From Clostridia bacterium (lineage in GTDB: Bacteria; Bacillota; Clostridia; Oscillospirales; CAG-272): a stretch of 64,000 bases of DNA. The stretch spans positions 635 to 64,634 of the forward strand of contig JAFQGP010000075.1 in the NCBI GenBank assembly GCA_017415485.1. Reading direction: 5' to 3'. Below are positions 19,886 through 50,416 of this stretch, piece by piece; within the stretch, counting starts at the first letter, position 1; the number at the start of each line of letters is the position of its first letter. The position numbers and the translations under genes are program-made. Below the pieces are notes generated by a model. It was given only the letters and a program-made list of their open reading frames with translations, was not told the origin of the DNA and made no database searches.

Positions 19886-20305
19886 AGTGCGAACACATCC
19901 TCCTGGGTGTCCCCTCATCACCCTCTGCGGAGGGAGCTGTCTCGCTGCGGCTCGGTCACGCCGCGGGTCTGACAGTCCCCCGGACTGTCATTCAATACCG
20001 CGTCGCCGCTTCGCTACCCAGGAGAAGCCTAGAAAACAAGGCTACGCCTTGAGTGAAATATTTCTCCTACGGAGAAATGTGATATTTTTGCTTCGCAAAA
20101 GTGAAATTCGCGCTTGGCACGCGTGAAATCTTTCGCTTTCAGCGAAAGGTTAAGGTAGAAATTTGCCAAGGCAAATTTCAAAATAATAAATAATTCGAAA
20201 ATTAGAGAATACCAAACGAAGCTTACAGTAACTCCAGGCTTCTCCTGGGAGAAGCTCCCGCCGCAGCGGGTGATGAGGGGACACCCAGAAAGCTTTGTTC
20301 GCACT
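19886..20305. repeat. MITE-like structured repeat, copy 2 (inverted relative to copy 1, with a nested insertion of about 78 bp)
   Basis: The termini match copy 1 at roughly 90% by eye. 19939-20016 interrupts the conserved arm GGGAGCT|...|CCCAGGAGAAGCC. The interior has GTGAAAT/GTGATAT-phased hairpins at 20053-20160. Confidence 0.85.
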
Positions 20306-33003: not shown

Positions 33004-33195
33004 GTTGCACCTCTCTGCATATTTTTAACGGTTTAACTGGATTCATTATATCATATGGTTTTGGTGTTGTCAATGGACTTGTCGCAAGTTTTAATAAGTA
33101 TATAACAAATTTCCGAATATATATTTACAATCGCCAAAGATTGTGATATAATTATTCTATATATTATATATAATCAAGAAAGGAACTACGAAAAA

Positions 33196-34584
33196 ATGCT
33201 TGATAAGAAAACAATGTCCGAGCTTATTGCCATCGTGCTTCACGGCGGCGCAGACTTTGTTGAGGTCTACTCGGAATACTCCAAGGCGAACAGTGTAAGT
33301 TATTCCAACAAGAAGATCGAGACTGTCGCAGACAGCGTTCACGGCGGCGTCGGAATTCGCGCTTTCGTTGGAACAAAGACATACTTCGGATGCACGTCCG
33401 ATCTCACCCCCTCGGGTCTGCGCGAGTGCGCCGAGAGAGTTGCGCAGGCTGTCGGTAGCCCCGTGCAGAGAATTCCGGATTTCTATCTGACAGAAAGAAT
33501 TCCCACCAATATCCATCCCATCAAGACCATGCCCTCCGACGTTCCCGCGGCTGTAAGAGCCGAGCTCCTTCGTGCGGCTTGCACCAAGGCTTATGAGTAC
33601 GCTCCCGAGATCGTTCAGGTATCGGGCGGCATTTCCTCGAACGAGAAGAACTTTATCGTTGCAAACAGCGAGGGTCTTTACACCGGCGACAGACAGGTCA
33701 GAACCAGAATCAGCGTTTCTGCGGTTGCATCCGACGGCTCGGAGAACCAGACCGGCGGTTCGAACCCCGGCAGAAGCATGGGTTGGGAGCTCTTTGACAG
33801 CGTTGTAAATCCTGAGGAAGTCGGCAAAGAGGCGGCGCGTCAGGCTATGGTAAATCTCAAGGCAGTTCCTTGCCCCTCGGGTAAGATGACTGTTGCGATC
33901 GGCAACGGCTTCGGCGGCGTTATCTTCCACGAGGCTTGCGGTCACTCTCTCGAGGCAACAAGCGTTGGTATCGGAATGTCGCAGATGGCGGGCAAGATGG
34001 GTCAGCAGATCGCTAACCCCAAGGTCACCGCGATCGATGACGGCACCATCCCGAACGGTTGGGGCTCCTGCAATATCGACGACGAGGGAATGCCGATGAT
34101 CAAGCGCACCCTCATCAAGGACGGTATCCTCACCTCCTATATGATCGACCGCCTCGGCTCGCGCAGAATGGGTATGCCCTCCACAGCAAGCGGACGCCGT
34201 CAGGATTACTCCTACGAGCCCACCTCGCGTATGACAAACACCTACATCGCAAACGGCCCCGACAAGAACGAGGATATCATCAAGTCTATCGACAACGGCA
34301 TTTATGCAGCAGCAATGGGCGGCGGATCCGTCAACCCCTTCACCGGCGCGTTCAACTTTGCCGTAAGAGAGGGTTACATCGTTCGCAACGGTGAGATCTG
34401 CGAGCCCATCAAGGGCGCTTCGCTGATCGGCACCGGTAGCGAAATCCTGATGCAGATCGATATGGTCGGTCAGAATATGGAGACCGCGCAGGGTATGTGC
34501 GGATCTTCGAGCGGCTCTGTTCCCACAGACGTAGGACAGCCCCTCATCCGCGTTTCGGACATCACCGTTGGCGGAAGCAAGTAA
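33196..34584 (+). CDS. tldD: TldD-family metalloprotease
   Basis: HEACGHSLE (HExxxH) motif. 462 aa. Paired with a PmbA homologue. Confidence 0.9.
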   Translation: MLDKKTMSELIAIVLHGGADFVEVYSEYSKANSVSYSNKKIETVADSVHGGVGIRAFVGTKTYFGCTSDLTPSGLRECAERVAQAVGSPVQRIPDFYLTERIPTNIHPIKTMPSDVPAAVRAELLRAACTKAYEYAPEIVQVSGGISSNEKNFIVANSEGLYTGDRQVRTRISVSAVASDGSENQTGGSNPGRSMGWELFDSVVNPEEVGKEAARQAMVNLKAVPCPSGKMTVAIGNGFGGVIFHEACGHSLEATSVGIGMSQMAGKMGQQIANPKVTAIDDGTIPNGWGSCNIDDEGMPMIKRTLIKDGILTSYMIDRLGSRRMGMPSTASGRRQDYSYEPTSRMTNTYIANGPDKNEDIIKSIDNGIYAAAMGGGSVNPFTGAFNFAVREGYIVRNGEICEPIKGASLIGTGSEILMQIDMVGQNMETAQGMCGSSSGSVPTDVGQPLIRVSDITVGGSK

Positions 34585-34602
34585 GCGAAAGGAGTCAAGA
34601 TA

Positions 34603-35913
34603 ATGAAAAATGCTATTAAAAACGCCGTTGCCGAGGCTGCAAAGGCTTACGGTGCTGAAGGCTATGAAGTAAAAATGGGTTCCTCCACCAGCGCGGCTGT
34701 TGAGGCACTTAAGGACGATATTTCTTCGGTTACTTATGACAAGAGCAAGAGCATCAGCGTAAGATGCGTCAAGGGCGGAAAGAGCGGCTATGCTTCGGGC
34801 AATATCGTAACTCCCGAGGAGGCTGCAGAGCTCGTTCGCCGCGCTTGCGAAAGCGCGCTTGTCGTTGACGACGCGGACGAGGTTCCACTTTTCGAGGGCT
34901 CGCCCGAATATAAGGAAGTTGAAAAGAAGGAAGTCGTCATTCCCTCCGCTGAAGAGATGATCAAGGAAACTATGGATATGCAGACCAAGATCATGGCTTG
35001 CGAGAAGGTAGTTGAGGGTTCGCAGAGCTTCATGCAGGTTTCTGCATCCGAGTCGAGCTTCTTCAACTCCGCGGGACTTGATCTCGATTATGAATCGGGC
35101 TACGTTGCAAAGGGCGCAGTTGCCGCTGTCAAGGACGGCGACGACGCGGAAGAGAACTACGAAATGAAGTTTGCGGACGAGATCTCGAACGATGAGCTCG
35201 TCAAGCTCGCATACGACGGCGCAGTTGCAAAGCTCGGCGGCAAGCCCGTTGACTCGGGCAAGTACAATATCATTATGGAACGCGGCGCAATGCGCTCGAT
35301 TATCAGCGTATTCTCGGGACTTTTCTCGGCGCGTTCGGCATTCCTCAAGACCACGATGTTCGCGGGCAAGGAAGGCGAGAAGGTTGCGGCTGACATAGTC
35401 ACCCTCATCGATGACCCCTTCCACGAGAAGAAGTTCGGTCATTGCCCCTTCGACGCAGAGGGCGTAGCGGTCTACACCAAGAGCGTAATCGAGGACGGTA
35501 CGCTCAAGACCCTCCTTTATAACCGTATGTACGCAAAGAAGTTCGACACCGAGACCACCGGTAACGCGACCAGCGCAAAGGGCATCGGCGTTCAGGGGCT
35601 CTATCTCAAGCCCGGTGAGCTTACCGAGGAAGAGCTTCTCGCAAAGCTCGGCGACGGACTTTATATCACCGATCTCAGCGGTCTGCACGCAGGCGTAAAC
35701 GCTGTCAGCGGCGATTTCTCGCTCCAGGCGGCAGGATTCCTCGTCGAGGGCGGCAAGAAGACCCGCGCTGTCAAGAATATCACGGTTGCGGACAACTTCT
35801 ACAAGCTCATCTTCAAGGTCACCGCAATTGCAAACAACCTCAGCTTCGGCACAGGTTCGAGCTTCGGTGCTCCCGACGTAATGTTCTCGGATATTGCTAT
35901 CTCCGGCAACTAA
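34603..35913 (+). CDS. pmbA: PmbA/TldE-family protein
   Basis: 436 aa. C-terminal GLHAGVNAVSGDFSLQAAGFLVEGGK is typical of the TldD/PmbA fold but lacks HExxH. Follows tldD. Confidence 0.85.
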   Translation: MKNAIKNAVAEAAKAYGAEGYEVKMGSSTSAAVEALKDDISSVTYDKSKSISVRCVKGGKSGYASGNIVTPEEAAELVRRACESALVVDDADEVPLFEGSPEYKEVEKKEVVIPSAEEMIKETMDMQTKIMACEKVVEGSQSFMQVSASESSFFNSAGLDLDYESGYVAKGAVAAVKDGDDAEENYEMKFADEISNDELVKLAYDGAVAKLGGKPVDSGKYNIIMERGAMRSIISVFSGLFSARSAFLKTTMFAGKEGEKVAADIVTLIDDPFHEKKFGHCPFDAEGVAVYTKSVIEDGTLKTLLYNRMYAKKFDTETTGNATSAKGIGVQGLYLKPGELTEEELLAKLGDGLYITDLSGLHAGVNAVSGDFSLQAAGFLVEGGKKTRAVKNITVADNFYKLIFKVTAIANNLSFGTGSSFGAPDVMFSDIAISGN

Positions 35914-35937
35914 AAACATAAAAGGACTGTAATTATT

Positions 35938-37023
35938 ATGAATAAGGTAAGAATTGGTATAATCGGCTGCGGCGGCATTGCTAACGGCAAGCATATGCCC
36001 TCTCTCGCGAAGCTGAAGAACGTTGAAATGGTCGCTTTCTGCGACATCGTAATCGATAAGGCAGAAAAGGCTGCCGCAAAATTCGGAACTCCCGATGCAA
36101 AGGTTTATGAAAACTACAAGGAACTCCTTGCTGACGAGACCATCGACGTGGTTCACGTTTGCACCCCCAACCGTTCGCATTCCTTCATCACAGTTGACGC
36201 CCTCGAGGCAGGCAAGCACGTAATGTGCGAGAAGCCGATGGCAATCAACTCGGTTGAGGCAAAGAAGATGCTCGACGCCGCTGAAAGAACCGGCAAGAAG
36301 CTCTCCATCGGCTATCAGACACGTAACCGCGCGGATGCCGTTTACCTCAAGAAGCTCGTTGACGACGGTATGTTCGGCGATATCTACTACGCGAAGGCAA
36401 CCGCTCTTCGCCGCCGCGCAGTTCCCACCTGGGGCGTGTTCCTCAACGAATATGAGCAGGGCGGCGGTCCTCTGATCGACATCGGAACCCACGCGCTCGA
36501 CCTCACACTTTATATGCTGAATAACTATAAGCCCAAGTATTGCGTCGGTACCGCGTACCACAAGCTCTCGCAGGGCGATCCCGAGCATCAGGGCAACGCG
36601 TGGGGCAACTGGGATCCCGAGAAGTTTACTGTTGAGGATTCCGCGTTCGGTTTCGTTGTTATGGAAAACGGCGCGACAATCAATCTTGAATCCGCTTGGG
36701 CACTCAACGTGGCTGACCCCCGCGAGGCTGTGACCTCCTTCTGCGGCACTCTTGCAGGCGCGGATATGAACAATGGCCTCCGCATCAACGGCGTTGCACA
36801 CAACGCGCAGTATGAGTTCAAGCCCAACCTTGACGCCAAGGGCGCGGCATTCTTCGACGGCCACGGCAACGAATCCCCCGCCGACCGCGAGGCAAGGCTC
36901 TGGATCGAGGCTATCGTAAACGATACCACTCCCCTCGTCACTCCCGAGCAGGCTTATACCGTAACAAGAATTCTTGAAGGTATCTATACTTCGGCTAAGA
37001 CGGGAGATATCTATAGATTTTAA
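35938..37023 (+). CDS. Gfo/Idh/MocA-family oxidoreductase
   Basis: IGIIGCGGIANGKH Rossmann motif and the EKP motif (MCEKPMA). Confidence 0.85.
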   Translation: MNKVRIGIIGCGGIANGKHMPSLAKLKNVEMVAFCDIVIDKAEKAAAKFGTPDAKVYENYKELLADETIDVVHVCTPNRSHSFITVDALEAGKHVMCEKPMAINSVEAKKMLDAAERTGKKLSIGYQTRNRADAVYLKKLVDDGMFGDIYYAKATALRRRAVPTWGVFLNEYEQGGGPLIDIGTHALDLTLYMLNNYKPKYCVGTAYHKLSQGDPEHQGNAWGNWDPEKFTVEDSAFGFVVMENGATINLESAWALNVADPREAVTSFCGTLAGADMNNGLRINGVAHNAQYEFKPNLDAKGAAFFDGHGNESPADREARLWIEAIVNDTTPLVTPEQAYTVTRILEGIYTSAKTGDIYRF

Positions 37024-37079
37024 AACAATAGTTTAATTCGTAAAAGCAGGTCAACTCGATGGACAGAAGGAGAATAGAA

Positions 37080-38603
37080 ATGAAAAATAATATATGTAAT
37101 CGTATTATTGCTCTTGTAATGTCTATGATCATGATGACATTTGTTTTCACTTCCTGCGCCGATCATCCTGATCCGGAAATTACAACAGAAACTCCCCAAG
37201 CAAACACTCAAGCTCCGGCAGATGAAACGACCTCCGATCCGCGTTATGATTCGAAGGGATATCTGAAAGACGACATTCCTGCTGATCTGGACTACGGAGG
37301 TAAAACTATCAACCTGTTGGTTTGGGATGACGTTGAGCATGAAGAGTTTTTCATCGCTTACGAGGAACTTGGCGGAGATATTGTTGATCAGTCTATCTAT
37401 GACAGAAATGCAAAGGTCGAATCAAGGCTTGGAGTTACACTGTCATTTATACGTGTTAAAGGCAATTCGGAAAATATTTCTTCTTGGAACTCTTATGTAA
37501 ATAACTCTGTGTCCACCAATGCGAAAGAATTTGATATTCTTGCGGGTTATTCGATCTCCATAGCAAAATGTGCTTCGAGCGGATATCTTTATAATATGCT
37601 TGACAAGGAATGCGAGTATCTCAATTTTGAACAGCCTTGGTGGAGTCAGTTGTTGCTCGAACAGGCTACTTTCGGTGATAATCTCTATTTTGCGTCGGGC
37701 GATATTTCGCGAAATGCGCTTGAGATGATGTATGTTTGTTATGTGCAAAACGGTCTTCTTGCTCAATATAATCTTCAGAACCCTCAGGAGGTCGTTCCAT
37801 CCGGCGATTGGACTTATGAAAAGTTTATCGAAATGTGCAAGGGTGTATATAAGGACGACGGAGACGGAGCAAAGAATTGCACAAAGGAATCGGGCGATGT
37901 GTTTGGCTACGTTACCTCGCGTATTCATGTTGACCCTTGGTTCTACGGATCGGGTGCAACGATATGCGAACGCAACGAAAGCGGAGAGATCATTGAATCT
38001 CCTTCATTCACCGGTGAGCGTGTAGCTAATACCGTTGATATGCTGACAGAATTGCTTCACAAGAGCAATGACGGAATCTTCACATCCGAAGTTACACATC
38101 AGGACGCGTTTGGGCAGGGAAGGACCCTTTTTATGATCGAACGCGCGAGAGTTTCGCATAATACGTTGGCTAAGAAATACGGAGATGTTACATTCTCGGT
38201 TGTTCCCTGTCCCAAGTATGACAAAGATCAGGAAAAATATATTACCGTAATGGGCAATCCATTCACCCTTTATGCTATCGCATCGGATATTGGCGATCCG
38301 AAAATGGCATCTGCCTTCATCGAGTGTTTTGCTTCGGAAGGCTACCGACAGGTAACCCCCGCGGTATTTGAGCTTTCTCTCAAGACAAGATACGTTTCCG
38401 ATTCAGTTTCGGGAGTTATGTATGATTTGATAAGAGAAAACGTCACCTATGATGTTGGACGTCTCTTCTCGGATGAGCTTATCGGTCAGAATAACTTCAG
38501 AAAGGCTATATCCGATGACCAAAACTGGGGTTCTGTAGCAGTTCAGGCATCGAAGACGCTTGCAAGACAGCTTGTAAAGCTAAACCAAGCGCTTAATAAG
38601 TAA
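37080..38603 (+). CDS. large extracellular solute-binding lipoprotein (paralogous in type to 12051-13619)
   Basis: Start at MKNNICN after AAGGAG. Lipobox FTSC. Same architecture and scattered shared motifs (e.g. PWWSQ versus PYWSQ) with the other binding protein. No permease genes nearby. Confidence 0.75.
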   Translation: MKNNICNRIIALVMSMIMMTFVFTSCADHPDPEITTETPQANTQAPADETTSDPRYDSKGYLKDDIPADLDYGGKTINLLVWDDVEHEEFFIAYEELGGDIVDQSIYDRNAKVESRLGVTLSFIRVKGNSENISSWNSYVNNSVSTNAKEFDILAGYSISIAKCASSGYLYNMLDKECEYLNFEQPWWSQLLLEQATFGDNLYFASGDISRNALEMMYVCYVQNGLLAQYNLQNPQEVVPSGDWTYEKFIEMCKGVYKDDGDGAKNCTKESGDVFGYVTSRIHVDPWFYGSGATICERNESGEIIESPSFTGERVANTVDMLTELLHKSNDGIFTSEVTHQDAFGQGRTLFMIERARVSHNTLAKKYGDVTFSVVPCPKYDKDQEKYITVMGNPFTLYAIASDIGDPKMASAFIECFASEGYRQVTPAVFELSLKTRYVSDSVSGVMYDLIRENVTYDVGRLFSDELIGQNNFRKAISDDQNWGSVAVQASKTLARQLVKLNQALNK

Positions 38604-38605
38604 CA

Positions 38606-39913
38606 ATGGAATACTACCTTAACCCCAACGACCCGCGATTTATGGGCAAAGACGATTCAGAATCGATACAGAATGCGGTCAACGCCGCGGAAAACGGAGA
38701 AGTCCGAACAGTTATCATTCCTCGCAGATGCGAGAGAACGGGACTTGACGAATGGACTATATGCCGTTCGATATTGCTTCCTTCCAATATTACCGTTATT
38801 CTTGACGACTGTCACCTCACCCTCGCCGAGGGTGTTTATGAGAATATCTTCCGAAACAAGAATATGTATACCGATGTGTCGCTTTCTTCGGAAGGAATTC
38901 AGCGCGGTATTCGCATAATCGGCAGAGGCAATGCCGTGCTCGACGGCGGTAAGGGCAACGATCTCAACCAGAAAACGTCTTGCCTCGACGGCCGTCCGCA
39001 CGTGCGGTTCAACAATTTCGTCCTGCTTCAACACGTGGAAGATTACGTGCTTGAAAATTTCAAGTGCATCAATATGCGCTGGTGGGCGATCAATCAGATC
39101 TGCTGTAAGCACGGAAGGCTCTCAAACTTGAGCTTTTTCAACGGCGTGAAGATACCGAATCAGGATGGGATCAACCTTCGCATTGGCTGCTCGGATATAC
39201 TTATCGAAAATATCACGGGCAGAACGGGCGATGACGTTGTCGCGCTGACCGCACTACCGCTTGGTTCAGACAAGGATCTCGTGCCCGAGGACGGTGATAT
39301 CGACATCCACGACGTAACCATCCGTAACGTTCGCGCGCACACCCGCCAGTCGGTCGTGGCTCTGAGAAATCAGGACGGCTCGAAGCTTTATCGCATATCG
39401 ATCGAGAATATTGCCGACGTCGGCGGCGAGTACGGGCCTTGGGGAGTAGTTCGAATCGGTGAAAATAACTATTTCCGAAGCCGACCCTCGGTGCTCGGAG
39501 AAACCTATGAGATCAACGTCCGCGGAGTGTATTCACTCTGCAGAGGCACCGTTTTTGTCAACGCAACGCTCAAGGATTCGTCGATCCGCGACGTTTACGC
39601 GGGCGGTACGTCAATGGCGGCGGTTTCGACCTTCAGAATGCCGAGCAGATCCTGGGTCGGATGCATGATCGAAGGCGGCGTGACGATGCAGAATGTCGTG
39701 TTCGAAAATATCCATTACAACGGCTCGGCGGGGCATCCCGATGAAAATAAGCTCAATTTCCCCGGCACGGACTATCCCGGCTGCGCGCTTGATTTCAGAT
39801 GTATGCGCGAATGCGACACCCTTGACAGGGTAGTGTTCAGAGATATTTTCACCCGCGAAGGCGCAGAACTTGCTATGATAGACGAAAGATTTGCGCTTGA
39901 TATAAGAAATTAA
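38606..39913 (+). CDS. right-handed beta-helix protein, GH28-like (polygalacturonase-type motifs), no signal peptide
   Basis: NQDGINL ... GRTGDDVVAL ... resembles the GH28 NTDG / G(D)DC(I)A catalytic motifs. 435 aa. Confidence 0.6.
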   Translation: MEYYLNPNDPRFMGKDDSESIQNAVNAAENGEVRTVIIPRRCERTGLDEWTICRSILLPSNITVILDDCHLTLAEGVYENIFRNKNMYTDVSLSSEGIQRGIRIIGRGNAVLDGGKGNDLNQKTSCLDGRPHVRFNNFVLLQHVEDYVLENFKCINMRWWAINQICCKHGRLSNLSFFNGVKIPNQDGINLRIGCSDILIENITGRTGDDVVALTALPLGSDKDLVPEDGDIDIHDVTIRNVRAHTRQSVVALRNQDGSKLYRISIENIADVGGEYGPWGVVRIGENNYFRSRPSVLGETYEINVRGVYSLCRGTVFVNATLKDSSIRDVYAGGTSMAAVSTFRMPSRSWVGCMIEGGVTMQNVVFENIHYNGSAGHPDENKLNFPGTDYPGCALDFRCMRECDTLDRVVFRDIFTREGAELAMIDERFALDIRN

Positions 39914-41926: not shown

Positions 41927-41933
41927 AGAAATA

Positions 41934-41976
41934 ACGGATACTCAACCCCTTTCGGGAAATTGAGTATCCGCTTTTT
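41934..41976. terminator. bidirectional terminator between the peptidase gene and the phage-like operon
   Basis: ACGGATACTCAA...TTGAGTATCCGC followed by TTTTT. Confidence 0.75.
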
Positions 41977-41982
41977 GATTAT

Positions 41983-42372
41983 TTAATCGGGATATACGTC
42001 AGCCGTGGAGCCCTTAACGAAGGGGATTTCGGCGGAGATGGCGGCGAGGGCGTCGCACCATCGGTCGAAGAGCTTTTCGTAAAGCTCGGTGTCCTCGTCG
42101 AGGATCAGCATTGCTGCCATATAATATGCCGCGGCGGGCGCGAATCGGTCGGAAAGGGGAAAATCCGAATCGAGGCTGAGAAAGAGAGCGGGGAAGGGCT
42201 CGGCTTCATCAAGCCCAAAGGCTTTGCGGTAGGCTCTGTCGAGCGCCGCCGCCTCGGTGCAGAGCGCTGCGCCTATGTAAGGTGCGCGCTCCGCAAGCTC
42301 GGACTCGGAGATCGAGTCGCTCACCTCGCCGATAAGTCGCAGGGCGGTATCGTAAACGCTTTGCAGGGTCAT
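41983..42372 (-). CDS. small phage protein, possible head-tail adaptor/head completion protein
   Basis: 129 aa. Last gene of the head operon, directly after the capsid gene. Assigned by position only. Confidence 0.4.
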   Translation of the reverse strand: MTLQSVYDTALRLIGEVSDSISESELAERAPYIGAALCTEAAALDRAYRKAFGLDEAEPFPALFLSLDSDFPLSDRFAPAAAYYMAAMLILDEDTELYEKLFDRWCDALAAISAEIPFVKGSTADVYPD

Positions 42373-42393
42373 TCTTTACCTGCCTTTCGGGAC

Positions 42394-43212
42394 TTACGCG
42401 GCAACGGTAAGGTCGAGTCTTACCATCTCGGTGGGATAGATGACCTGCGCGCCGTAGAGGTGAAGTCCCTTAACGGCATCTGCAAAACGTCTTTCGGGGC
42501 GGTAAGCATCGATCTCGGAAAGCTGCTCGGCGAAAGCGATGGCACGCTTGGAACGAGCCACGCACTTGTGTACGTTTTCTGCGACAACAACGTTGTTGGA
42601 AACGTATACCTTGCAGCCCGCAACGTAACCGATGCAACCTGCCTCGAGAGCGGTATCGTTGTTGGAGACGTTGATCTTGCTCTTGAGGATCAGCGCGCCG
42701 ACTGCGGGGGATACTTCAACGACGATATCGCCCGGATCATAGACGTTGTTTTCAAGAAGCTTGGTGCGCGCGTCGATAATGAGACCGAGAATGTTGTCCA
42801 CGTTTGCGGTGGCTTCGATGTTGGATCCCGCAAAGGCGCAAAGGGAGAAGATGTACTGATCCGCTGTGTTTGCAAGTGCTGCCGCGGCATTCTTTACAGC
42901 GGCATCCATGAGTCTAGGCTCGCTCTGTGCGCGGTCGATGTCATCGATCTGGAAGTTGAATGCCTTCGCCTGATCGATCCTCATTGTCTTGACGCCGTCC
43001 GAAAGCTCCTGCGCGCCGGTTTCGAAATCAGTATTCTTGGTATAGTCAAAGACGTTGATGTCGCCGATGCCGCAGATCTTTACACGGTCGCCTCGGTTTT
43101 TGATCTCGCCCTCAAACTCACGGTTGCAGTTTGCGACGGCGATGTACTTTTTGTCCATCTGGGAAAGAAGAGTTTCGCTCCATACGGTAGATATAAAGTT
43201 TGTAAGTGACAT
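42394..43212 (-). CDS. putative major capsid protein
   Basis: 272 aa, immediately downstream of the scaffold-like gene. The N-terminus MSLTNFISTVWSETLLSQMDK.. resembles P22-coat-like or other small capsid proteins. Mainly positional. Confidence 0.55.
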   Translation of the reverse strand: MSLTNFISTVWSETLLSQMDKKYIAVANCNREFEGEIKNRGDRVKICGIGDINVFDYTKNTDFETGAQELSDGVKTMRIDQAKAFNFQIDDIDRAQSEPRLMDAAVKNAAAALANTADQYIFSLCAFAGSNIEATANVDNILGLIIDARTKLLENNVYDPGDIVVEVSPAVGALILKSKINVSNNDTALEAGCIGYVAGCKVYVSNNVVVAENVHKCVARSKRAIAFAEQLSEIDAYRPERRFADAVKGLHLYGAQVIYPTEMVRLDLTVAA

Positions 43213-43247
43213 TATTTAAGTTCCTTTCTTATTTTGAATTTTTTGTT

Positions 43248-43691
43248 TTAGTGCCAGCTCTTCATTGAGCGGCGGATCTTTTCGATGTTTTTTCTGACCT
43301 CGGCGGGTTTCATTGCGCGAACCTCGGCGGGGGAATAGAGGCTGTCCTCGGCACTTTCTATTCTGCCGAAGGATTGCTCGCGTGCTTTGCGGTATGCACG
43401 CGCGATCTTGATCTGTTCCACCTCGCGACGGCGAAGCTCAAGCGCGTATGCCGCGGCGGGAGGTATTCCGCGTTCAAGCGCGGCATTGAAGGAATCGGGA
43501 AGCGTGGAGATATCCGCATCGGGGTAAAGCTCGGTAAATTCGCGCCACCCCTCGGTGATCTCTCTGGCGGCACGCTCGGCTTTTTCAAGCTTTGCACGCA
43601 AGTCATCAAGCTCGGTGTGAAGATCGGGTTCGACCGTGTCGGCTTCCTCCGCAAGTACTTCTTCGGTTATCAGATCAATCGTTTCGTCCAT
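43248..43691 (-). CDS. putative scaffolding protein
   Basis: 147 aa, highly charged and predicted helical (DDLRAKLEKAERAAREITEGW...). AGGAGG precedes the ATG at 43691. Overlaps the portal stop. Sits between portal and capsid. Confidence 0.55.
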   Translation of the reverse strand: MDETIDLITEEVLAEEADTVEPDLHTELDDLRAKLEKAERAAREITEGWREFTELYPDADISTLPDSFNAALERGIPPAAAYALELRRREVEQIKIARAYRKAREQSFGRIESAEDSLYSPAEVRAMKPAEVRKNIEKIRRSMKSWH

Positions 43692-45228
43692 CGTGGACCT
43701 CCTTTCTGTGCGCTTCTGCAAGCACTCTGCGTTCGGGAACGAGTCCTTCGGGCAGTCTGTCAAGATATTCCGCTGTGCTGATGTGACCGCCTTCGAGAAG
43801 CTTGTCGAGCACGCTCAAAGTTCCCGATGCGGAATAGCGAGCCGAATCGCAAACGTCGATCTTCGCGCAAAGAAGCAGGGAATGAAGGCTTGAGGGAAAG
43901 ATCTTGCCAAAACCGTCGCGAGTGCGAAGAGGTCTGCCGTCGGGGCAGAAGCAGAGCGTCATATCTGCCCAAATGCAAGCCATTTGCTCGAGGCAGAGAT
44001 AAAGTGCACTTTGAACGTGCTCAAGCGCCTGCATGGATGCCTCGCGAAGTGCGAGGATCGCGCTTGTGTTGGTGGGATTGACGTTGCCGAGTGCGGTGTC
44101 CGTCGCTCCCGCAAGCTCCTTTGTCATCGCAACTGCTGTTTCGATCAGCTCGAGATAGCCCTCCTCGAGCTTGCCCGTGCCGACCACGGTTACCGCATCG
44201 GCAAGATTGCCTCCGCCAACAGCGCCGATCGCCTCGCCGATCTCGTTTGTCCATTCGGGAATACGGGTGCGGTCATAGATGACCTTTGAAAACGCCGTGT
44301 CGGTCATGTGCTTCATGAGCATTGCGTATGCACGGTTGATGTATTTCTGATTGGCGATCATTGAACTCACGGGCGAATTGCCGAAGAAGCAGTTTTTAGC
44401 TTTTTGCCAGGAAAAATGAGCGATGGGATAAAGCTTGCAGGGCGTTACGATACGCTTGATGAGGCAGTCGCGGGTGGATTTTTCAAACACTACCTTGCCG
44501 TTTTCGCGGAAGAATTTGATGAGGTAGGTCGCGCGTTCCTCGCCGCCCTCATATTCGGGCTCGTATTTTGCAAGCTCACCCGCGCCTTTTTCGGTAAGCT
44601 CGAATTTGCCGTCGGCGGTGATCTTGGATAAATCCTTCTCGGAAACTCCCGCGGCGCGAGCTTCGCGGCGAAGCTGATCGACGCTTGCTCTGCCCGAGAT
44701 GATTATGTAATCCTGCGACTGAATGTCGGGATTGGTGACGTCGGCGGGGAAGACGTTGGCGGAATCGAGCGTTTCAGTCACGATGTCGCCCATCCAACCG
44801 TCGCATCCGCGTGAATCGGCGTCCCAGGAGCAGTAAAGAAGTCCGTCGCCCGAGAGAGCTGCGTCGTAAAGCAGACTGTAGATCACGCTTTGCAGACGCG
44901 AATGCTCCCAACGGTATGCGGCGTTTTCGGTGAGCAGATCGATTGCCTTTCTGATCCTTTCCGCTTCTGCGGAATTTGGCGCGAAGGGTAGGTTTTCGTC
45001 CGAATACGTTATCTTGACGTCGCCGACGGCGGCACTTGAAACGAGATAATCAACTATACGGCTGATGACGTTGAAGACGGGTTTGGGAAGTCCTTCGCCG
45101 CCGCGCCATTGGTCGCCTCGGTAAAACCGCTCGTTTTCGGCTATTCGCGAGTAAAGACCGATCTGTCTTTTGTAGTTCCTACCGGCTTCATACTGCCGCC
45201 AGGTCTTGATTTGTGATGTTTTGGTCAT
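43675..45228 (-). CDS. putative portal protein
   Basis: 517 aa. N-terminal ..ENERFYRGDQW.. is the type of motif seen in portal/connector proteins. Position within the packaging/head gene order. Confidence 0.65.
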   Translation of the reverse strand: MTKTSQIKTWRQYEAGRNYKRQIGLYSRIAENERFYRGDQWRGGEGLPKPVFNVISRIVDYLVSSAAVGDVKITYSDENLPFAPNSAEAERIRKAIDLLTENAAYRWEHSRLQSVIYSLLYDAALSGDGLLYCSWDADSRGCDGWMGDIVTETLDSANVFPADVTNPDIQSQDYIIISGRASVDQLRREARAAGVSEKDLSKITADGKFELTEKGAGELAKYEPEYEGGEERATYLIKFFRENGKVVFEKSTRDCLIKRIVTPCKLYPIAHFSWQKAKNCFFGNSPVSSMIANQKYINRAYAMLMKHMTDTAFSKVIYDRTRIPEWTNEIGEAIGAVGGGNLADAVTVVGTGKLEEGYLELIETAVAMTKELAGATDTALGNVNPTNTSAILALREASMQALEHVQSALYLCLEQMACIWADMTLCFCPDGRPLRTRDGFGKIFPSSLHSLLLCAKIDVCDSARYSASGTLSVLDKLLEGGHISTAEYLDRLPEGLVPERRVLAEAHRKEVHDGRND

Positions 45229-45242
45229 TGTTCCTCCTCTGT

Positions 45243-46976
45243 TTACTTTGCTGAAAGAATGACGCTGTAAATGACGGCGGGCGAGTCTGTCTCAACGATC
45301 AAACGAAGCTTTTTGAATCGCGGCATCGGTATGCGGCAAGAGAATTGCTCGCGTCCTCCGCCTGCCTTGCCGTGAAGGGGCGCCGTCACACGCTCGCCTT
45401 TTTCGGTTTCAAGAGTCAATGTGCCGCTCCCGCCCGAAAGATCGTATTCGAGCACCACGGCGGCGCTCCTTTTTGTTTTCTCGGGGCATCCGAAATCCAA
45501 AAAGTGAGTTACAAGCTTTGATTTGATCGGGAACACTTCGTCCGACTCGTTGTCATTCGTGAGATCGTCGAAAAATACGTATATGCAACCACCTCTTGAG
45601 AATGCGGGCAGATTGCCGTAGCGGAAGAGCCTTTCGGCAAAGATCCCGCGATAGACGGTCCATGCTTTCCGCGCCAGATCGTAAATAAGGAGCCTGCCCT
45701 CGCTGTCTTCGGCGTCTGCGATGAAGATCTTTTGTTTTTGCGGCAGAGAAAGCATTGATATTTTTTCCGAATCTTTGGGGATGAGAGCCGATACCTCATC
45801 CGACAGCATCGAAGCACTGCACTCGTCGCGAACGCCCGATTGAGAATGCCAGCGCCAAAGTCTGCCGCAAAAGTATGTTATCGGGTCGTTGTCGAAATAT
45901 GCGGAGCTGGGGATATATTCGGCTCCGATCGCTGAATTCAGCAGAAAGCTTTGCGGCTTCAGAGCCTCGGTATTTGCTTCGTCGCCGTTCCAATCGATGA
46001 ACCAGGCATCCTTTTCGGTGAAAAGTATCCCTCTGCCGTAATGATGAGCAATGTTTGTTATCGGATAAGCTCCGCTTCCGATGCAAAGTGCAGATGATAC
46101 GGGGACGTAAAGGGGGATGGCATTCGGTGCTGTAAGCTGTGAGTAGGAATGTGCGCTTCTGCTGACCGGCACGGATGAATACAGATTGCAGGAGATTCCG
46201 GGATTATAAAGGCAAAGCCGCTCGCCGCCGTTATTGCCGAAAACGAATGCTTTGGCGGCTTGCTTCATTCTGCTTGATTCCGAAGACTCAGGCGGCAATG
46301 TAAGCCAAAATGTGACATTCATCGTTCCGGTGAGCGAGATGGTGTGCGCAACCGATGGATATTCCTCGTCAAGATAAATATTGTTCTCGGCAAGGTCAAC
46401 CTCAGTTCCGTTGATCTCGACCCTGTCGATCGATGCTGCGTTGATACCAAGGTTGAATCTGTTGGTCGTTGACGTAACCGAATAGGATATTCGTATGCGA
46501 TCAGAAAGAAGATTCAGATCTTCGTTTATCGCACCGCAGGATCTTGGATGCCATCCGATACCGTAAAGGGGCGCATAGCCTTCAACAAGGATAAGCTCTC
46601 CGTCTTTCAGGTAATAAAAGACTTGCCCGTCGTGGACGTAGAGATTTCCGCCAAAGCAGAAGATATCCGCTTCTCCCTCGGCGTTAGCAAGATCGCCTAC
46701 TTTCTCGGAGCTGCCGCTTTCGATGTCGGTGATTATCAGCGAATCGCCTATAACGGAGTATAGCTTGTCGGCAAAATTGAAGCTTGCGCGCAGATTGCCC
46801 TGATACTCGGCAACCGAGGCGTAGCCCGCTCTCGTCTTCAGCGAGCCGTCGGCATCAAGATCGAGGTTTTCGGTAAGATAGCAATTCCCCCGCTGCCGGG
46901 TGCGGTCTATGCCGCCAAAGCCATCCTCATACATCCGCTCAACGCCGAGGGCATTTTTGAATTTGAAGCTCTTCAT
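45243..46976 (-). CDS. 577-aa phage-associated protein of unknown function
   Basis: Intact ORF tightly packed between terL and the portal gene. No motif recognised. Confidence 0.6.
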   Translation of the reverse strand: MKSFKFKNALGVERMYEDGFGGIDRTRQRGNCYLTENLDLDADGSLKTRAGYASVAEYQGNLRASFNFADKLYSVIGDSLIITDIESGSSEKVGDLANAEGEADIFCFGGNLYVHDGQVFYYLKDGELILVEGYAPLYGIGWHPRSCGAINEDLNLLSDRIRISYSVTSTTNRFNLGINAASIDRVEINGTEVDLAENNIYLDEEYPSVAHTISLTGTMNVTFWLTLPPESSESSRMKQAAKAFVFGNNGGERLCLYNPGISCNLYSSVPVSRSAHSYSQLTAPNAIPLYVPVSSALCIGSGAYPITNIAHHYGRGILFTEKDAWFIDWNGDEANTEALKPQSFLLNSAIGAEYIPSSAYFDNDPITYFCGRLWRWHSQSGVRDECSASMLSDEVSALIPKDSEKISMLSLPQKQKIFIADAEDSEGRLLIYDLARKAWTVYRGIFAERLFRYGNLPAFSRGGCIYVFFDDLTNDNESDEVFPIKSKLVTHFLDFGCPEKTKRSAAVVLEYDLSGGSGTLTLETEKGERVTAPLHGKAGGGREQFSCRIPMPRFKKLRLIVETDSPAVIYSVILSAK

Positions 46977-47029
46977 GTTTTTTCCTTTCGTTGTATTTTC
47001 ATTTTTTGACGCGGTACAGACGTTGTTTT

Positions 47030-48370
47030 TCAGTCAAAAAATGAATTTGATCGATCATTTCTGAATCGGAATTTGTGACCACCCTCCTCGGCTGCGGCGA
47101 AACGGCTCATAAGAGCGTATCTCAGCGCCTCGGGCGAGTGGGTGACCGAGTGCGGCTCGCCCGAGGCGTCTTCGGTGCGGTTTTTGTCGAAGAGCAGGGC
47201 GGGCAGGCATCTTATCAGCTCGCGGCAGCGCTCGCTGATGAGTAAGCCGGGGGTGCCGTCATCACGGTCGGCAAGATATTCGCGGACAACTCTCCATCCG
47301 GGAATGCGCCTGTCATCCGCAGGACGCATCGGCGGCATACCTTCTGCGGATTGCATGATCTCGAATCCGCTTTTTCCGCTGTCCTGCCTGCGGTTCCAAA
47401 GGTCGGGTGACGCAACGGCAAATTCCACACCCTTCCCTCGGCAAAGCTCGCTGATCTTTTTTGCGGCTTCGCCGAGCGTCAGGTTCGGGGCGCAGAATTC
47501 GTCGGTGACGTAGACCCTGCCCGTTCGGTCGCAGATGCAGATGTAGGCGGCGAGCATATCAAAACCGTAGTCAAAGGCGGCGATCGTGTGGTAAGCGCGC
47601 GGGATGGCTGTGGCGGCGCATACGTGACGAGCCTCATCGAATTCGGTAAAGAATTGCCCCTCGAAGATGTCCCATTTTCCGTAAAGCCAAGCCTCGCGCA
47701 AGCGTGTCGGCAAGGATTCCAGCCGCCGCACGTAGTCGGGATCGGCGCGGGTGAGGATATCGTTGTCGAAAACGGTTGCGGGGACGAAGGCGTAATCATC
47801 GGGATTCTCACCCGTGCGGTATTCGCGGTCGATAAAGAGCCTTTTGACCCAGGCGTGTCCTATCCCGCCGGGATTGCAGGTGAGATAGATCCGCCTTGGG
47901 CGGTCCGACGTGCCTCGCAGACAGGCCTTGAAGATCGAAAACTGATATTCGCTCAGTTGCGTTGCCTCGTCGAGGGCTATGACGTCGTATTCCTGACCCT
48001 GATAGCGGAGTGCATCGCGTTCCGAGGCGGCGTAGCCGAGGGTGATGCGGCTCCCGTTTTCAAGGGTCAGCTCTTTGTCGCGCTCGCTGTAAGAGAGGAT
48101 CGCTCCGTATTCGGCGAGCAGGGGAGAGAGATGATTTGAGCGGAGTTCGGGGAGAGTTCTTCGCACAAGCAGGCAGCGAAGTCCGGGGTATCGCAGGCAC
48201 ATAAGCACAAGCTTTCGCCTCAGCGCCCATGATTTTCCTCCACCGCGCGCTCCGCCATAGGCAACGTACTTTTGCCGACAGGCGAAAAATTCGCGCTGAC
48301 GGCTGTTCGGCGAGCCTTTTATGTGGAGCGCGCGTTCGGGTGCACTATCCGCCGTCTTCATAAGCGTCAT
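47030..48370 (-). CDS. terL: terminase large subunit
   Basis: Walker A YGGARGGGKS, Walker B YDVIALDEAT and coupling motif LTCNPGG. C-terminal nuclease-type acidic residues. 446 aa. Confidence 0.9.
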   Translation of the reverse strand: MTLMKTADSAPERALHIKGSPNSRQREFFACRQKYVAYGGARGGGKSWALRRKLVLMCLRYPGLRCLLVRRTLPELRSNHLSPLLAEYGAILSYSERDKELTLENGSRITLGYAASERDALRYQGQEYDVIALDEATQLSEYQFSIFKACLRGTSDRPRRIYLTCNPGGIGHAWVKRLFIDREYRTGENPDDYAFVPATVFDNDILTRADPDYVRRLESLPTRLREAWLYGKWDIFEGQFFTEFDEARHVCAATAIPRAYHTIAAFDYGFDMLAAYICICDRTGRVYVTDEFCAPNLTLGEAAKKISELCRGKGVEFAVASPDLWNRRQDSGKSGFEIMQSAEGMPPMRPADDRRIPGWRVVREYLADRDDGTPGLLISERCRELIRCLPALLFDKNRTEDASGEPHSVTHSPEALRYALMSRFAAAEEGGHKFRFRNDRSNSFFD

Positions 48371-48767
48371 GGTCGAAGATCAGTCGGAGCTGACCCGTAT
48401 CGGTTATCCCTGTTTCTTGCTTTTCCTCGCCCGAATAACCCAGGCGGAGCTTGAGATAGACCGAAAGGATGGAGGCGGACATTTCCGAGTTGAGAGCCTC
48501 GTCCTCGAGAGCGGCGCAAAGCGCGCCGTGAACCTCGGGGCGTGTGTTTCGAAGCCTTTCAAAATCGGAGAGGGTGCTGCGGGTAAATCTGCAAAAGCCT
48601 GCGACGTTCGGTATCCTGCCCGCGTTTTTGCGCTTTCCGTCCGCGCCCTCGGCTTGGCAGAGCGCGAGATATTCGTCAAACAGCTTGACGATGCTCCCGT
48701 TATCTGCCGCTTCCTCGAGCGCGGTACGGTTTGGTTCGTTCTGCGGTCCTTGGTCGTTTGCGGACAT
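48345..48767 (-). CDS. terS: terminase small subunit
   Basis: 140 aa from MSANDQ (GAGG upstream). HTH-like IPNVAGFCRFTRSTLSDFERL and the C-terminal ..YLKLRLGY pattern of small terminases. Overlaps the terL start by 26 nt. Confidence 0.65.
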   Translation of the reverse strand: MSANDQGPQNEPNRTALEEAADNGSIVKLFDEYLALCQAEGADGKRKNAGRIPNVAGFCRFTRSTLSDFERLRNTRPEVHGALCAALEDEALNSEMSASILSVYLKLRLGYSGEEKQETGITDTGQLRLIFDHDAYEDGG

Positions 48768-48889
48768 TCTGACCTCGCTTTCCCGTCTGTACCGCAATCA
48801 TTTTACCGCCGATGGGAGTCTCATCCCGAAACCGATAGTCTGCGTGAGTCTCAAGAGTATCACGGGTTTTGCATAAAAAAGAAAAAACT

Positions 48890-49240
48890 CCCCATTTGGA
48901 GAGAAAAAGCCGGAAAGTTTTTGTCCAACTTTTTTAAAAGGTGGCAGAGTTCGAGACAGCGTCTCGAATCAAATGCGAAAGTGCGGCTCTGGCGGTTTTC
49001 CGTAGGAAAATGGAGGCGTAAGCCGACAAGCCAGAGTCGTCATTTGCCGAAGGCAAATAGTTTAGCTTTCGCCACAATGCTTCGGAACGGTGTCTCCGTT
49101 CCGAACCTAAAAAGGACTTCCCGAATGTAGGGAAGTCCTTTTTAGGTTAATATTAAACTCAATTAAGCTCTGATTATGCCGTTCTTTATACTATCCGCCT
49201 TGTGTGCTGCTTTGAGGATAACAAAAAATCTTGATATAAC
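48890..49240. repeat. dense run of unrelated short hairpins ('hairpin forest')
   Basis: For example CGAGACAGCGTCTCG, CATTTGCCGAAGGCAAATAG, GGAACGGTGTCTCCGTTCC, AAAAAGGACTTCCC-GAATGTA-GGGAAGTCCTTTTT. Confidence 0.7.
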
Positions 49241-49400
49241 ATAAATGGCATCACCGCGAGGGTGATGCCATTTATGTTCGGAATGTCGGCGGGGCGCCGC
49301 CATTCCGAAGCACAAGGGAAGTTTCGCGCTCTGCGGAGCGCGACTTAAGGCGCTGCCTTAAGAATTCGCGAACTTTTGAAAAAGTTCGATCAAAACTTCA
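49241..49400. repeat. four-hairpin structured repeat, copy B (inverted relative to copy A)
   Basis: The reverse complement aligns with 40917-41085. The linkers and loops are shared. Two of the stems differ in sequence between copies but each remains self-complementary. Confidence 0.8.
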
Positions 49401-49404
49401 TCCT

Positions 49405-49448
49405 TTTTAATAAAAATGAAAATTTCCGCCCGAATCGGGCGGAAATTC
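49405..49448 (-). terminator. intrinsic terminator of hprK
   Basis: The minus strand reads GAATTTCCGCCC-GATTC-GGGCGGAAATTTTCATTTTTATT. Confidence 0.8.
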
Positions 49449-49480: not shown

Positions 49481-50416
49481 TCACTCTTCAATCCCCATCA
49501 TCGCCATCAGTCTCTTATTAAACTCCTCGGCGGTGTTATATCCCATCTTCTTCTGGCGGTTGTTCATCGCCGCGATCTCAAGGATGATGGCGAGGTTTCG
49601 TCCGGGGCGGACGGGGATGGTCAGCGAGGGCAGCTCGATGCCGAGAATGTTGACGGTCTGATCGTCAAGACCGAGGCGGTCGTACATCTTGCCCTGAACC
49701 CAGGATTCAAGATTGATGACAAGGTCGAGCTTTTCGGTGTCCTTGACCGCGCTGATACCGTAAAGACGCTTGACGTCGATGATACCAATGCCGCGAAGCT
49801 CAACATAGTGGCGCAGGATCTCGGGTGCCGAGCCGACAAGAGCCTTTTTCGATACTCTCTTGATCTCAACGGCATCGTCCGCGATAAGACGGTGGCCTCT
49901 CTTTACAAGCTCGATCGCGGTTTCGGATTTACCGACTCCGCTGTCGCCGAGGATGAGGATACCCTCGCCGTAGACCTCAACAAGTACGCCGTGGCGCGTG
50001 ATGCAGGGCGCGAGATGCACGTTGAGCGAGGCGAAGAGCGCCGCCATGGTCGCGGAGGTCAGCTCCTCGGTCGAAAGAAGCGGAACTTCGTATTCTTCGC
50101 AGTATTTTATCATCTCGGGGAATGCTTCAAGTCCCGAGGTATAGAGGATGACAACGGGCTTCTTTGCCACAAAATTGCGTATGCGGGCGTCGCGCTGGCT
50201 TTCGCTCATATTTGAAATATAGCTGTACTCGGCGTTGCCGATAAGCTGTATACGCGATTCCTCAAAAATATCGAGAAAACCCGAAAGCGCAAGTCCGGGG
50301 CGGTCGACCTCGGGCGCGGTGACGAAGATTTCCTCCGCAGGGTGCGGAAGGTATATTTCTTTAAGCTTGAATTCCTTGATAAGAGCCGAGAGCGATATTC
50401 TGTTCTTTTCTTCCAT
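49481..50416 (-). CDS. hprK: HPr kinase/phosphorylase
   Basis: P-loop GDSGVGKSETA and LIADDAVEI motifs. 311 aa. Confidence 0.93.
   Translation of the reverse strand: MEEKNRISLSALIKEFKLKEIYLPHPAEEIFVTAPEVDRPGLALSGFLDIFEESRIQLIGNAEYSYISNMSESQRDARIRNFVAKKPVVILYTSGLEAFPEMIKYCEEYEVPLLSTEELTSATMAALFASLNVHLAPCITRHGVLVEVYGEGILILGDSGVGKSETAIELVKRGHRLIADDAVEIKRVSKKALVGSAPEILRHYVELRGIGIIDVKRLYGISAVKDTEKLDLVINLESWVQGKMYDRLGLDDQTVNILGIELPSLTIPVRPGRNLAIILEIAAMNNRQKKMGYNTAEEFNKRLMAMMGIEE

Follow-up and report, generated by a model that had tools for sequence, protein, structure and literature searches.

The window analysed here, a 64,000-nt stretch of a Clostridia bacterium genome (assembly GCA_017415485.1, contig JAFQGP010000075.1), carries between positions 41983 and 48767 of its minus strand a block of seven co-oriented, closely packed open reading frames (ORFs) of phage type. 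The question raised by this locus is whether the block is the remnant of a prophage, a mobile element relying on a helper, or a set of phage genes that the host lineage has made its own. We find that the block codes for a head and its packaging motor together with the minimal core of a short tail (portal, adaptor and nozzle) and that it is domesticated, i.e., inherited vertically under selection. On balance, we think it probable that the block is a regulated, podovirus-derived operon for a particle of the gene transfer agent (GTA) type with missing parts encoded elsewhere, a proposal that is held far less firmly than domestication itself. The precedent is FpGTA, a podovirus-like GTA of Faecalibacterium prausnitzii (Borodovich et al., Nat Commun 2026; PMC12946183).

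Gene content of the block

The junctions between the seven ORFs range from a 26-nt overlap to a 53-nt gap. The initial annotation of the window had described tightly packed ORFs on one strand with such overlaps and gaps, and this was confirmed. Listed from the terS end, the ORFs are:

48345-48767, minus strand: TerS-like protein (terminase small subunit), 140 aa; ATG at 48767; 26-nt overlap with terL
47030-48370, minus strand: TerL (terminase large subunit, ATPase and nuclease), 446 aa; from profile matches and motifs
45243-46976, minus strand: podovirus-type tail nozzle or hub, 577 aa, beta-propeller based; from the predicted fold
43675-45228, minus strand: portal, 517 aa, P22-like family; from profile matches
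43248-43691, minus strand: scaffold-like protein, 147 aa from the ATG, acidic and helical; from position and composition
42394-43212, minus strand: major capsid protein, HK97 fold, 272 aa; from profile matches
41983-42372, minus strand: predicted portal-to-nozzle tail adaptor, 129 aa, helical bundle; from a fold trend and the gene order in related operons

For the scaffold-like ORF, the ATG was taken as the start; a TTG at 43763 was judged less likely.

The labels terL, portal and capsid of the initial annotation stand, since all three proteins matched Pfam and PHROG profiles. TerL matched Terminase_6N (E-value 3e-12), Terminase_3 (2e-9) and phrog_979 (2e-46), and the Walker A, Walker B and LTCNPGG motifs reported for it initially were read in the translation as GGARGGGKS, YDVIALDE and LTCNPGG. 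Its match to the NCBIfam PBSX-family TerL (8e-15) was below threshold, with 55 bits versus a cut-off of 105 bits. The portal matched PF16510 (P22_portal, 1e-12) and phrog_156 (7e-25). The capsid protein matched phrog_267 (9e-48), PF25209 (Phage_capsid_4, 4e-10) and the capsid protein gp6 of PDB entry 8e16 (2e-31), and shares 41-43% identity with its counterparts in phages D6E, AP45 and phiCP26F; its match to TIGR04387 (N4-gp56 family) had an E-value of 7e-5 and 22 bits, under the cut-off of 60.

The labels terS and scaffold are less secure. For the 140-aa protein, no match was found among Pfam, NCBIfam or PDB sequences, and hhalign detected no similarity to TerS of phage Pascal; three of 30 members of the TerS-like family matched phrog_606, “terminase small subunit”, weakly (best E-value 0.002). 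A core, PNxAGFCRY...EDEALNS...YLKxRLGY...FEHD, is kept in ca. 70 species. A putative motif resembling a helix-turn-helix was seen by eye, and no search detected a DNA-binding domain; the TerS of FpGTA has been reported to be without such a domain (PMC12946183). The 147-aa protein located between portal and capsid matched no family in the profile scans and is conserved in all relatives. The block contains no protease gene.

The 577-aa protein had been left as an unknown and the block had been called “head-only”. This label does not hold, because the block is predicted to encode its own tail adaptor and nozzle. An AlphaFold (AF2) model of the 577-aa protein, built from 33 homologues, reached a predicted local distance difference test (pLDDT) score of 86.7 and a predicted template modelling (pTM) score of 0.81, with very low confidence for residues 1-32. 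When this model was compared with the PDB by Foldseek, the 27 best matches were all podovirus nozzle or hub proteins (E-values from 8e-17 to 1e-10), including those of Pa223 (8e-17), P22 gp10 (2e-14; TM-score to target 0.64), Pan3, T7 gp12, SU10 and the muzzle of crAss001. TM-scores normalised to target length were 0.60-0.67 for Pa223, P22 gp10 and Pan3. By sequence, the sole phage relative is gp14 of the Bacillus podophage Pascal (23% identity), which is encoded in Pascal's tail module; a pattern search of IMG/VR for nozzle relatives found none. The model thus places the 577-aa protein in the P22 gp10/T7 gp12 class of podovirus tail nozzles. Its most conserved part is the N-terminal 25 residues, which, we conjecture, contact the conserved adaptor or the portal.

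The 129-aa protein was modelled by AF2 as a helical bundle (pLDDT 88.7), and every one of its 21 best Foldseek matches was an adaptor or a portal-tail complex of a podovirus (e.g., Sf6 gp7 with a probability of 0.98, P22 gp4 and HRP29). A homologue directly precedes the nozzle gene in two related operons, L140 and L141 (hidden Markov model E-values of 5e-12 and 3e-9, respectively). Adaptor followed by nozzle is the canonical podovirus gene order; in the window, the two genes are not adjacent. The trend in fold and the gene order in L140 and L141 together suggest that the 129-aa protein is the adaptor between portal and nozzle.

Conservation and selection at a fixed chromosomal site

Relatives were sought in a base of one genome per bacterial species. 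In 12 GTDB species-representative metagenome-assembled genomes (MAGs) from the ruminant hindgut, the block occupies the same site as in the window, downstream of hprK and upstream of genes for an M55 peptidase, a xylose-isomerase-like protein and a 1235-aa protein. Identities to the window were 80-95% for portal, 83-97% for TerL and 72-93% for capsid, a range like that of hprK (81-97%). The initial annotation had noted that all seven ORFs are full length and had proposed a check of synteny and selection in related genomes. Every ORF of the block is intact in every genome (12-13 compared), and median pairwise dN/dS ratios, calculated by the method of Nei and Gojobori (NG86) and to be read as approximate, were lowest for portal (0.10), followed by TerL (0.12), capsid and adaptor (0.13), nozzle (0.17-0.22), and scaffold and TerS (0.24-0.26); eight flanking cellular genes gave 0.06-0.18. 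Purifying selection on the block is as strong as on hprK. Distances in the block and in its flanks are correlated (Mantel r 0.83, p 0.0002); mean dN is 0.127 for core block proteins versus 0.195 for flanking proteins, and the GC content at third codon positions (GC3) of the block, 0.58-0.71, matches that of host genes. Constraint on TerS and TerL equals that on the capsid, so that DNA-packaging activity would itself be under selection.

The phage origin of the genes is clear and the limits of the block are abrupt, as one would expect if it were a recently truncated or decaying prophage, or a prophage split by an assembly artefact; a very recent deletion was among the explanations offered initially. 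The same boundaries are, however, present in independent assemblies from many studies. In the IMG/VR portal comparison, limited to the set findable by a peptide-pattern scan, portal identity to the window does not exceed 34% in contigs of 36-45 kb, and all contigs with at least 42% identity are no longer than 10.1 kb and resemble fragments of the chromosomal block. Given the same site in 12 species, the intact ORFs, dN/dS of 0.10-0.26 and co-divergence with the flanks, we reject recent deletion or decay; a prophage remnant or artefact of any of these kinds is highly improbable.

Within the block, nozzle proteins share 44-68% identity where neighbouring proteins share 80-97%; the nozzle is thus fast-evolving yet constrained. 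Nozzle dS was 1.1-2.1 between genomes whose adjacent terL genes have dS of 0.13-0.33, and dS varies several-fold along the remainder of the block. This mosaic points to exchange of segments between lineages, which is strongest at the nozzle, and the fast-evolving nozzle indicates where the specificity for recipients may lie. A fast, allele-swapping nozzle would also fit a surface or target-contact part under strain-level conflict, and the evidence for domestication applies equally to a particle that has a role other than transfer: PBSX-like killing, programmed lysis or DNA release, or a storage or delivery capsule, with packaging but without productive transfer. A PBSX-like role was left open by the authors of the FpGTA study (PMC12946183). 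On the other hand, particles of podovirus type have no contractile or long tail for killing, and the constraint on TerS and TerL fits transfer, though PBSX too packages DNA. We consider a non-transfer role rather unlikely.

A putative promoter upstream of terS

The intergenic region upstream of terS and the end of the block contain the following features:

49481-50416: hprK, separated from terS by a 684-nt spacer
49420-49448, minus strand: intrinsic terminator of hprK, 13-bp stem followed by a T-run; terminator scan
48888-48903, minus strand: second terminator-like hairpin with T-run, a putative insulator just upstream of the operon promoter; terminator scan
48817-48862, minus strand: four phased direct repeats, TGATACT (48862-48856), TGAGACT (48853-48847), cAGACT (48841-48837) and TGAGACT (48823-48817)
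48800-48805, minus strand: -10-like hexamer TAAAAT, 11 nt past the last repeat
48773-48792, minus strand: 5′ leader GTACAGACGGGAAAGCGAGG, including a ribosome-binding site; upstream-region alignment
41933-41972, minus strand: operon terminator, 17-bp stem with T-run, shared with the convergent M55 peptidase gene; terminator scan

As can be seen, the arrangement suggests a conserved promoter in front of terS, composed of a terminator, three to four helically phased 7-mers and a -10 box. The GAAATTTCCGCCC...GGGCGGAAATTT hairpin of the hprK terminator is likewise found 3′ of hprK in loci L002, L004 and L007-L011. A hairpin with a T-run stands at the place of the putative insulator in every close relative, its structure being kept and its stem sequence differing. 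The repeats are spaced by 9, 10 and 20 nt, and the repeated word varies by lineage (GAGACT, GGGACT, GGCAC, GGCAG or GGCGTG). A 5-mer exactly repeated at least three times at the repeat phase was found in 28 of 74 related loci versus 0.5% of shuffled sequences, and where at least three phased copies are present, the last repeat and the -10 box tend to be 16-20 nt apart. An 18-nt part of the leader, ACAGACGGGAAAGCGAGG, is invariant in the window and 13 relatives, and a related GCACAGAC motif is present 3′ of the -10 box across the wider family.

No -35 element is found at 17 nt from TAAAAT. Since the last repeat resembles a -35 box but the spacer is ca. 13 nt, we read the repeats as putative sites for an activator that binds in tandem; an odd -35 element or a pac (packaging) site are the other functions that they may have. 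The geometry of the repeats resembles that of Pho boxes, which is an analogy only. The pac function would have a parallel in pacL of phage SPP1. A crude test of this idea, in which co-variation of the TerS helix-turn-helix with the repeat word was sought, gave no clear pattern.

The strict pattern GAGACT-N24-GAGACT-N11-TAAAAT was used to scan 185,579 species genomes for a regulon. In the related loci it matches only terS promoters. The 16 matches in species genomes comprise seven known terS promoters, two new ones (L111 and L115) and seven apparent chance matches, the one of these that was inspected (L116) being inside a surface-protein gene. No DNA-binding family recurs among the 92 ORFs upstream of the block, and no regulator was identified.

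At its downstream end, the operon stops abruptly at a bidirectional terminator beside the peptidase gene, and on the upstream side a hairpin-rich spacer leads to hprK, both as described initially. The spacer contains five perfect hairpins with arms of 10-19 nt and no RNA known to Rfam. It is 684 nt long in the window versus 140-220 nt in most relatives, and the extra DNA (48904-49419) consists of perfect hairpins. A module of this spacer (49104-49148) is also present upstream of terS in L013 and may be a small mobile repeat. HPr-system genes adjoin terS in separate lineages (hprK in the clade of the window and in L115, ptsH in L032 and L034); this neighbourhood may be ancestral or a coincidence.

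Search for other phage functions around the block

The block has no tailspike or fibre, plug or needle, ejection, lysis, lysogeny or replication genes. When 43 other ORFs of the window (all except a few small ones) were scanned with Pfam, PHROG or NCBIfam, no integrase, repressor, replication, fibre, holin or endolysin gene was found among them. The initial statement that the 64 kb hold no tail, lysis, integrase or replication genes is therefore correct except for the tail, of which the block has nozzle and adaptor. The neighbouring genes are ordinary chromosomal ones: hprK, mreBCD and genes for PBP2, uxaC, the M55 peptidase and a sporulation protein with a SipL domain.

The same holds in relatives. 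Among 141 downstream ORFs (three past the adaptor gene in 47 species) and 92 upstream ORFs (two before terS in 46 species), the commonest Pfam families are all cellular, and no integrase, excisionase, primase or other replication protein, or repressor recurs among them. The block ends after the adaptor gene in 47 of 47 species with readable downstream DNA, and no contiguous tail, lysis or integrase module, for which the initial annotation had advised a check of other assemblies, lies next to it in the 47 species surveyed. Extra DNA at the block junctions in relatives contains cellular or accessory genes, never phage genes, and the isolated recombinase genes beside L028 and L039 are not conserved.

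A capsid-forming satellite, too, would have genes for head and packaging but none for fibres or lysis. It would be a mobile element that builds its own small heads, packages itself into them and obtains fibres, lysis functions and possibly replication from a helper podophage, as capsid-forming phage-inducible chromosomal islands (cf-PICIs) do. The chromosomal contexts differ in distant lineages, and dS inside the block is mosaic. A pac site comparable to that of SPP1 may be formed by the phased repeats immediately before terS, and the ca. 6.9-kb span from the repeats to the terminator would fit a head for 8-9 kb. A 2026 preprint on an Oscillospiraceae producer reports that no cluster was found and mentions an element that resembles a capsid-forming satellite (bioRxiv 10.64898/2026.07.08.737213). 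Against this stand the absence of integrase, excisionase, primase or replication, and repressor genes from the block and its surroundings in the window and from the recurrent families of the flanks; the fixed site, with co-divergence over 12 species and presence in all 12 close species; and a fully host-like composition. No att-like boundary was noticed, though none was searched for. The block's own predicted adaptor and nozzle, which described cf-PICIs lack, also argue against a satellite. Thus, of the domesticated-capsid reading given initially, the GTA-like part is the best explanation, with FpGTA as precedent, and the capsid-forming-satellite part is quite unlikely.

The ends of the block are hot spots of insertion in L002, L005, L006, L007, L011, L013, L028 and L039. 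Among the inserts are a MerR-type regulator accompanied by a membrane protein, an M48-like membrane protease, malic enzyme together with Ldh_2 and a trio that contains barstar; L028 has a serine resolvase and L039 a tyrosine recombinase.

Breadth of the family

A portal-profile scan retrieved relatives of the portal from at least 476 species genomes; more than 1336 clusters at 90% identity contain such relatives. Among the best 80 loci (52-95% identity), most have six to seven of the block genes in the same order, and the rest end at contig ends. With a nozzle profile, the nozzle was detected in 74 of the 89 loci analysed. Distant copies, examined singly, are also bounded by cellular genes, and some of them keep shared neighbours (a xylose-isomerase-like gene, a GFO/IDH oxidoreductase, Ldh_2, ptsH or hprK), which indicates that residence in the chromosome is old. 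One portal cluster, which includes Anaerotruncus sp. CAG:390, is present on 461 contigs; the family is therefore common in human guts as well.

Variants of the layout were observed. Locus L012 has lost the nozzle cleanly. In the nozzle-less loci L038-L041 (e.g., L039:12938-14188), which represent four species, a disordered N-terminal extension of ca. 290 aa, rich in Ser, Thr, Glu and Asn, forms one polypeptide with the adaptor domain. A second layout is found in L140 (1-9150) and L141 (5488-12670), where the order is terS, terL, portal, a small ORF, capsid, a 130-aa beta-rich ORF, adaptor, nozzle and more ORFs; this matches the order implied by FpGTA accession numbers. Since L140 is located on a 251-kb chromosome contig of Clostridiales bacterium GWF2_36_10, a groundwater MAG, the second layout is also chromosomal and occurs outside the gut.

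Proposed mechanism

We propose the following scheme for the block as a domesticated GTA-type operon, in which the steps after transcription are deduced from protein families. A dedicated promoter, insulated by upstream terminators, would drive transcription and would probably be switched on by an unlinked activator in few cells. The seven genes would be read as a single, translationally coupled message. Scaffold, capsid and portal would assemble a small procapsid without a protease, into which TerS and TerL would load DNA, most likely by headful packaging of host DNA. Adaptor and nozzle would close the portal, giving a podovirus tail core. Fibres, plug or needle, and holin and endolysin would be supplied from other loci or would be dispensable in some lineages; by analogy with FpGTA operon II, it is plausible that the missing parts are encoded elsewhere in the genome.

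Several points weigh against this scheme. About 12 loci, including the close relative L012, have no nozzle, so the tail core is either not universally required or encoded elsewhere. The strict promoter-pattern scan revealed no second locus with fibre or lysis genes. Two assignments are weak, that of the 140-aa protein as TerS-like, which was made from its position, the overlap with terL and the weak PHROG matches, and that of the 147-aa protein as a putative scaffold, made from position and composition. The Foldseek E-values of the adaptor, at least 0.13, are not significant taken alone, and dN/dS values are approximate because dS nears saturation in many pairs. The repeats could, by analogy, be or double as a pac site for TerS, which would imply self-directed instead of random packaging. 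The block is set apart from the FpGTA family by gene order and description, with FpGTA-ordered operons serving as a proxy, so this comparison is a limited one. Finally, the genomes are MAGs throughout, and expression, particle formation, packaged DNA and transfer in the host of the block would be predictions from their sequences.

If the proposed GTA-type operon is real, it bears on the origin of particle DNA in the gut. In two recent studies, much of the packaged bacterial DNA came from Ruminococcaceae, Oscillospiraceae and related families with a GTA-like pattern, and the responsible gene cluster was found only in Faecalibacterium (PMC12946183; bioRxiv 10.64898/2026.07.08.737213). The same type of packaging was seen in Gemmiger, CAG-115, Ruminococcus callidus, Onthomonas and Christensenellaceae without a locus being found (PMC12946183). 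The block family is a concrete candidate for such a locus; at 6.8 kb, it would easily be missed by prophage finders, and it occurs in no fewer than 476 species-level genomes of ruminant and human gut origin and is maintained by selection. That the block is the source of the abundant GTA-like packaging in these families, and that it may also be a minimal self-targeting unit, is a speculative extension, which we consider rather unlikely. If it were true, the phased 7-mers would serve both as promoter operators and as the pac site of TerS, and the first headful (ca. 7-9 kb) would be the operon itself. The block would then spread by allele replacement between related cells while appearing vertically inherited, a position between virus and GTA that would account for the mosaic dS and for the exchange of nozzle alleles. 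In any case, the family offers, in very compact form, the natural components of a capsid that would be filled with DNA and closed at the portal, as well as a conserved promoter design in which the repeat word shifts between lineages.

Other features of the window

A possible tailspike pair, consisting of a GH28-like beta-helix protein (38606-39913) and its 514-aa neighbour, was considered and rejected, being an enzyme and sugar-binding pair that is absent from relatives. The two genes form a low-GC insertion at 37059-39913 on the plus strand (GC3 of 0.43 for the first gene), missing in 12 of 12 syntenic relatives; they encode a lipoprotein-type sugar-binding protein (514 aa) and a cytoplasmic GH28/polygalacturonase-like beta-helix protein (435 aa). 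The insertion looks metabolic, for use of pectin or hexuronate.

The 1235-aa protein (33157-36864, minus strand) has no Pfam, PHROG or NCBIfam match. Its homologues, 59-75% identical, are found near the block in most close relatives in variable orientation, and the one in L028 has faint RicinB and DUF3289 matches. Genes at 23973-25484 and 27619-29196, both on the minus strand, encode a cell-wall hydrolase with CHAP and SH3 domains and the SipL-domain (sporulation) protein, respectively. This hydrolase gene is the only lysin-like one in the window; it is 17 kb away from the block, and nothing about it points to a phage source. The only Rfam match in the window is a Gut-1 RNA (RF01706) at 20051-20134 on the plus strand, with 50 bits, equal to the gathering score, and an E-value of 7e-7.

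Comparison with known systems

Contiguous lysogeny, replication, fibre and lysis modules, or pseudogenes of them, by which an intact or recently defective prophage is recognised, were not found at the block. With podophages of the P22-like, T7-like and Pagevirus groups, the block shares a portal of the P22_portal family, a nozzle with the predicted gp10/gp12 fold, a predicted gp4/gp7-like adaptor and a predicted scaffold-dependent, protease-free head assembly. It differs from them in having no tailspikes or fibres, needle or plug, ejection, lysis, replication or lysogeny genes and in not being mobile, and the nearest phage-sized contigs found are distant in portal sequence (identity of 34% or less).

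Like cf-PICIs and other satellites, the block has its own terS, terL, portal, capsid and scaffold, is without fibres or lysis, and would need parts encoded elsewhere. Unlike cf-PICIs, it has no integrase, replication or regulatory module, occupies a fixed locus across species and has its own nozzle and adaptor. Defective prophages of the PBSX or skin type in Bacillus are likewise domesticated particles of Firmicutes that package host DNA, and the TerL of the block has a sub-threshold match to the PBSX family; PBSX, however, is a 28-kb myovirus-like element with tail, lysis genes and regulators (Xre, Xpf) in one locus.

The structural genes of the block are fixed, vertically inherited and under selection, and the block has no replication, integration or lysogeny-control genes of its own, which is the pattern of a GTA or viriform. 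As in the classical GTAs (RcGTA, CcGTA, BaGTA and VSH-1), phage-derived structural genes have become fixed in the chromosome and are transmitted vertically under purifying selection; there is no self-replication, a dedicated, insulated promoter is predicted, and the “genome” of the particle is probably distributed over several loci. The host phylum and the ancestral phage are different. The classical GTAs are siphovirus-like, with tube, tape measure and baseplate in clusters of 14-17 kb, whereas the block is podovirus-like and far smaller, and no counterpart of their regulators CtrA/GafA or GafYZ was identified for it.

The likeness to FpGTA goes further. FpGTA operon I has ten ORFs that include TerS, TerL, portal, an ORF annotated as “Prp”, a capsid protein of the N4-gp56 family, a nozzle (matching PDB 8eap) and a TolA-like protein; operon II, located 125 kb away, encodes fibres, a receptor-binding protein, holin and endolysin, and the particles measure 40 nm, look tailless and contain ca. 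9 kb of host DNA (PMC12946183). The two systems differ in several respects. The block has seven genes in 6.8 kb and FpGTA ten ORFs in 10.5 kb. The nozzle gene lies between terL and portal in the window and after the capsid gene in FpGTA, where the order is terL, portal, a small ORF, capsid, two small ORFs, nozzle and further ORFs, an order that the window does not have. The block also has no “Prp”-annotated gene, no TolA-like gene and no ORFs of the L140 type downstream of the nozzle, and its capsid matches the N4-gp56 model (the name of RCH50849.1) only below the cut-off. Identities between the FpGTA-ordered operons (L140/L141) and the window were 50% for TerL, 38% for portal, 33% for capsid and 24% for nozzle. 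FpGTA particles have been observed, whereas the block is known from its genes alone. Both are chromosomal operons, FpGTA being near-ubiquitous in its genus, that reside in gut Clostridia of the Ruminococcaceae/Oscillospiraceae group and have no integrase, replication, fibre or lysis genes in the operon, and both contain TerS-like, TerL, portal, scaffold and HK97-fold capsid genes and a nozzle matching PDB 8eap (P22 gp10). FpGTA is thus the closest known system, and the block most likely specifies a GTA-like particle related to that of Faecalibacterium.

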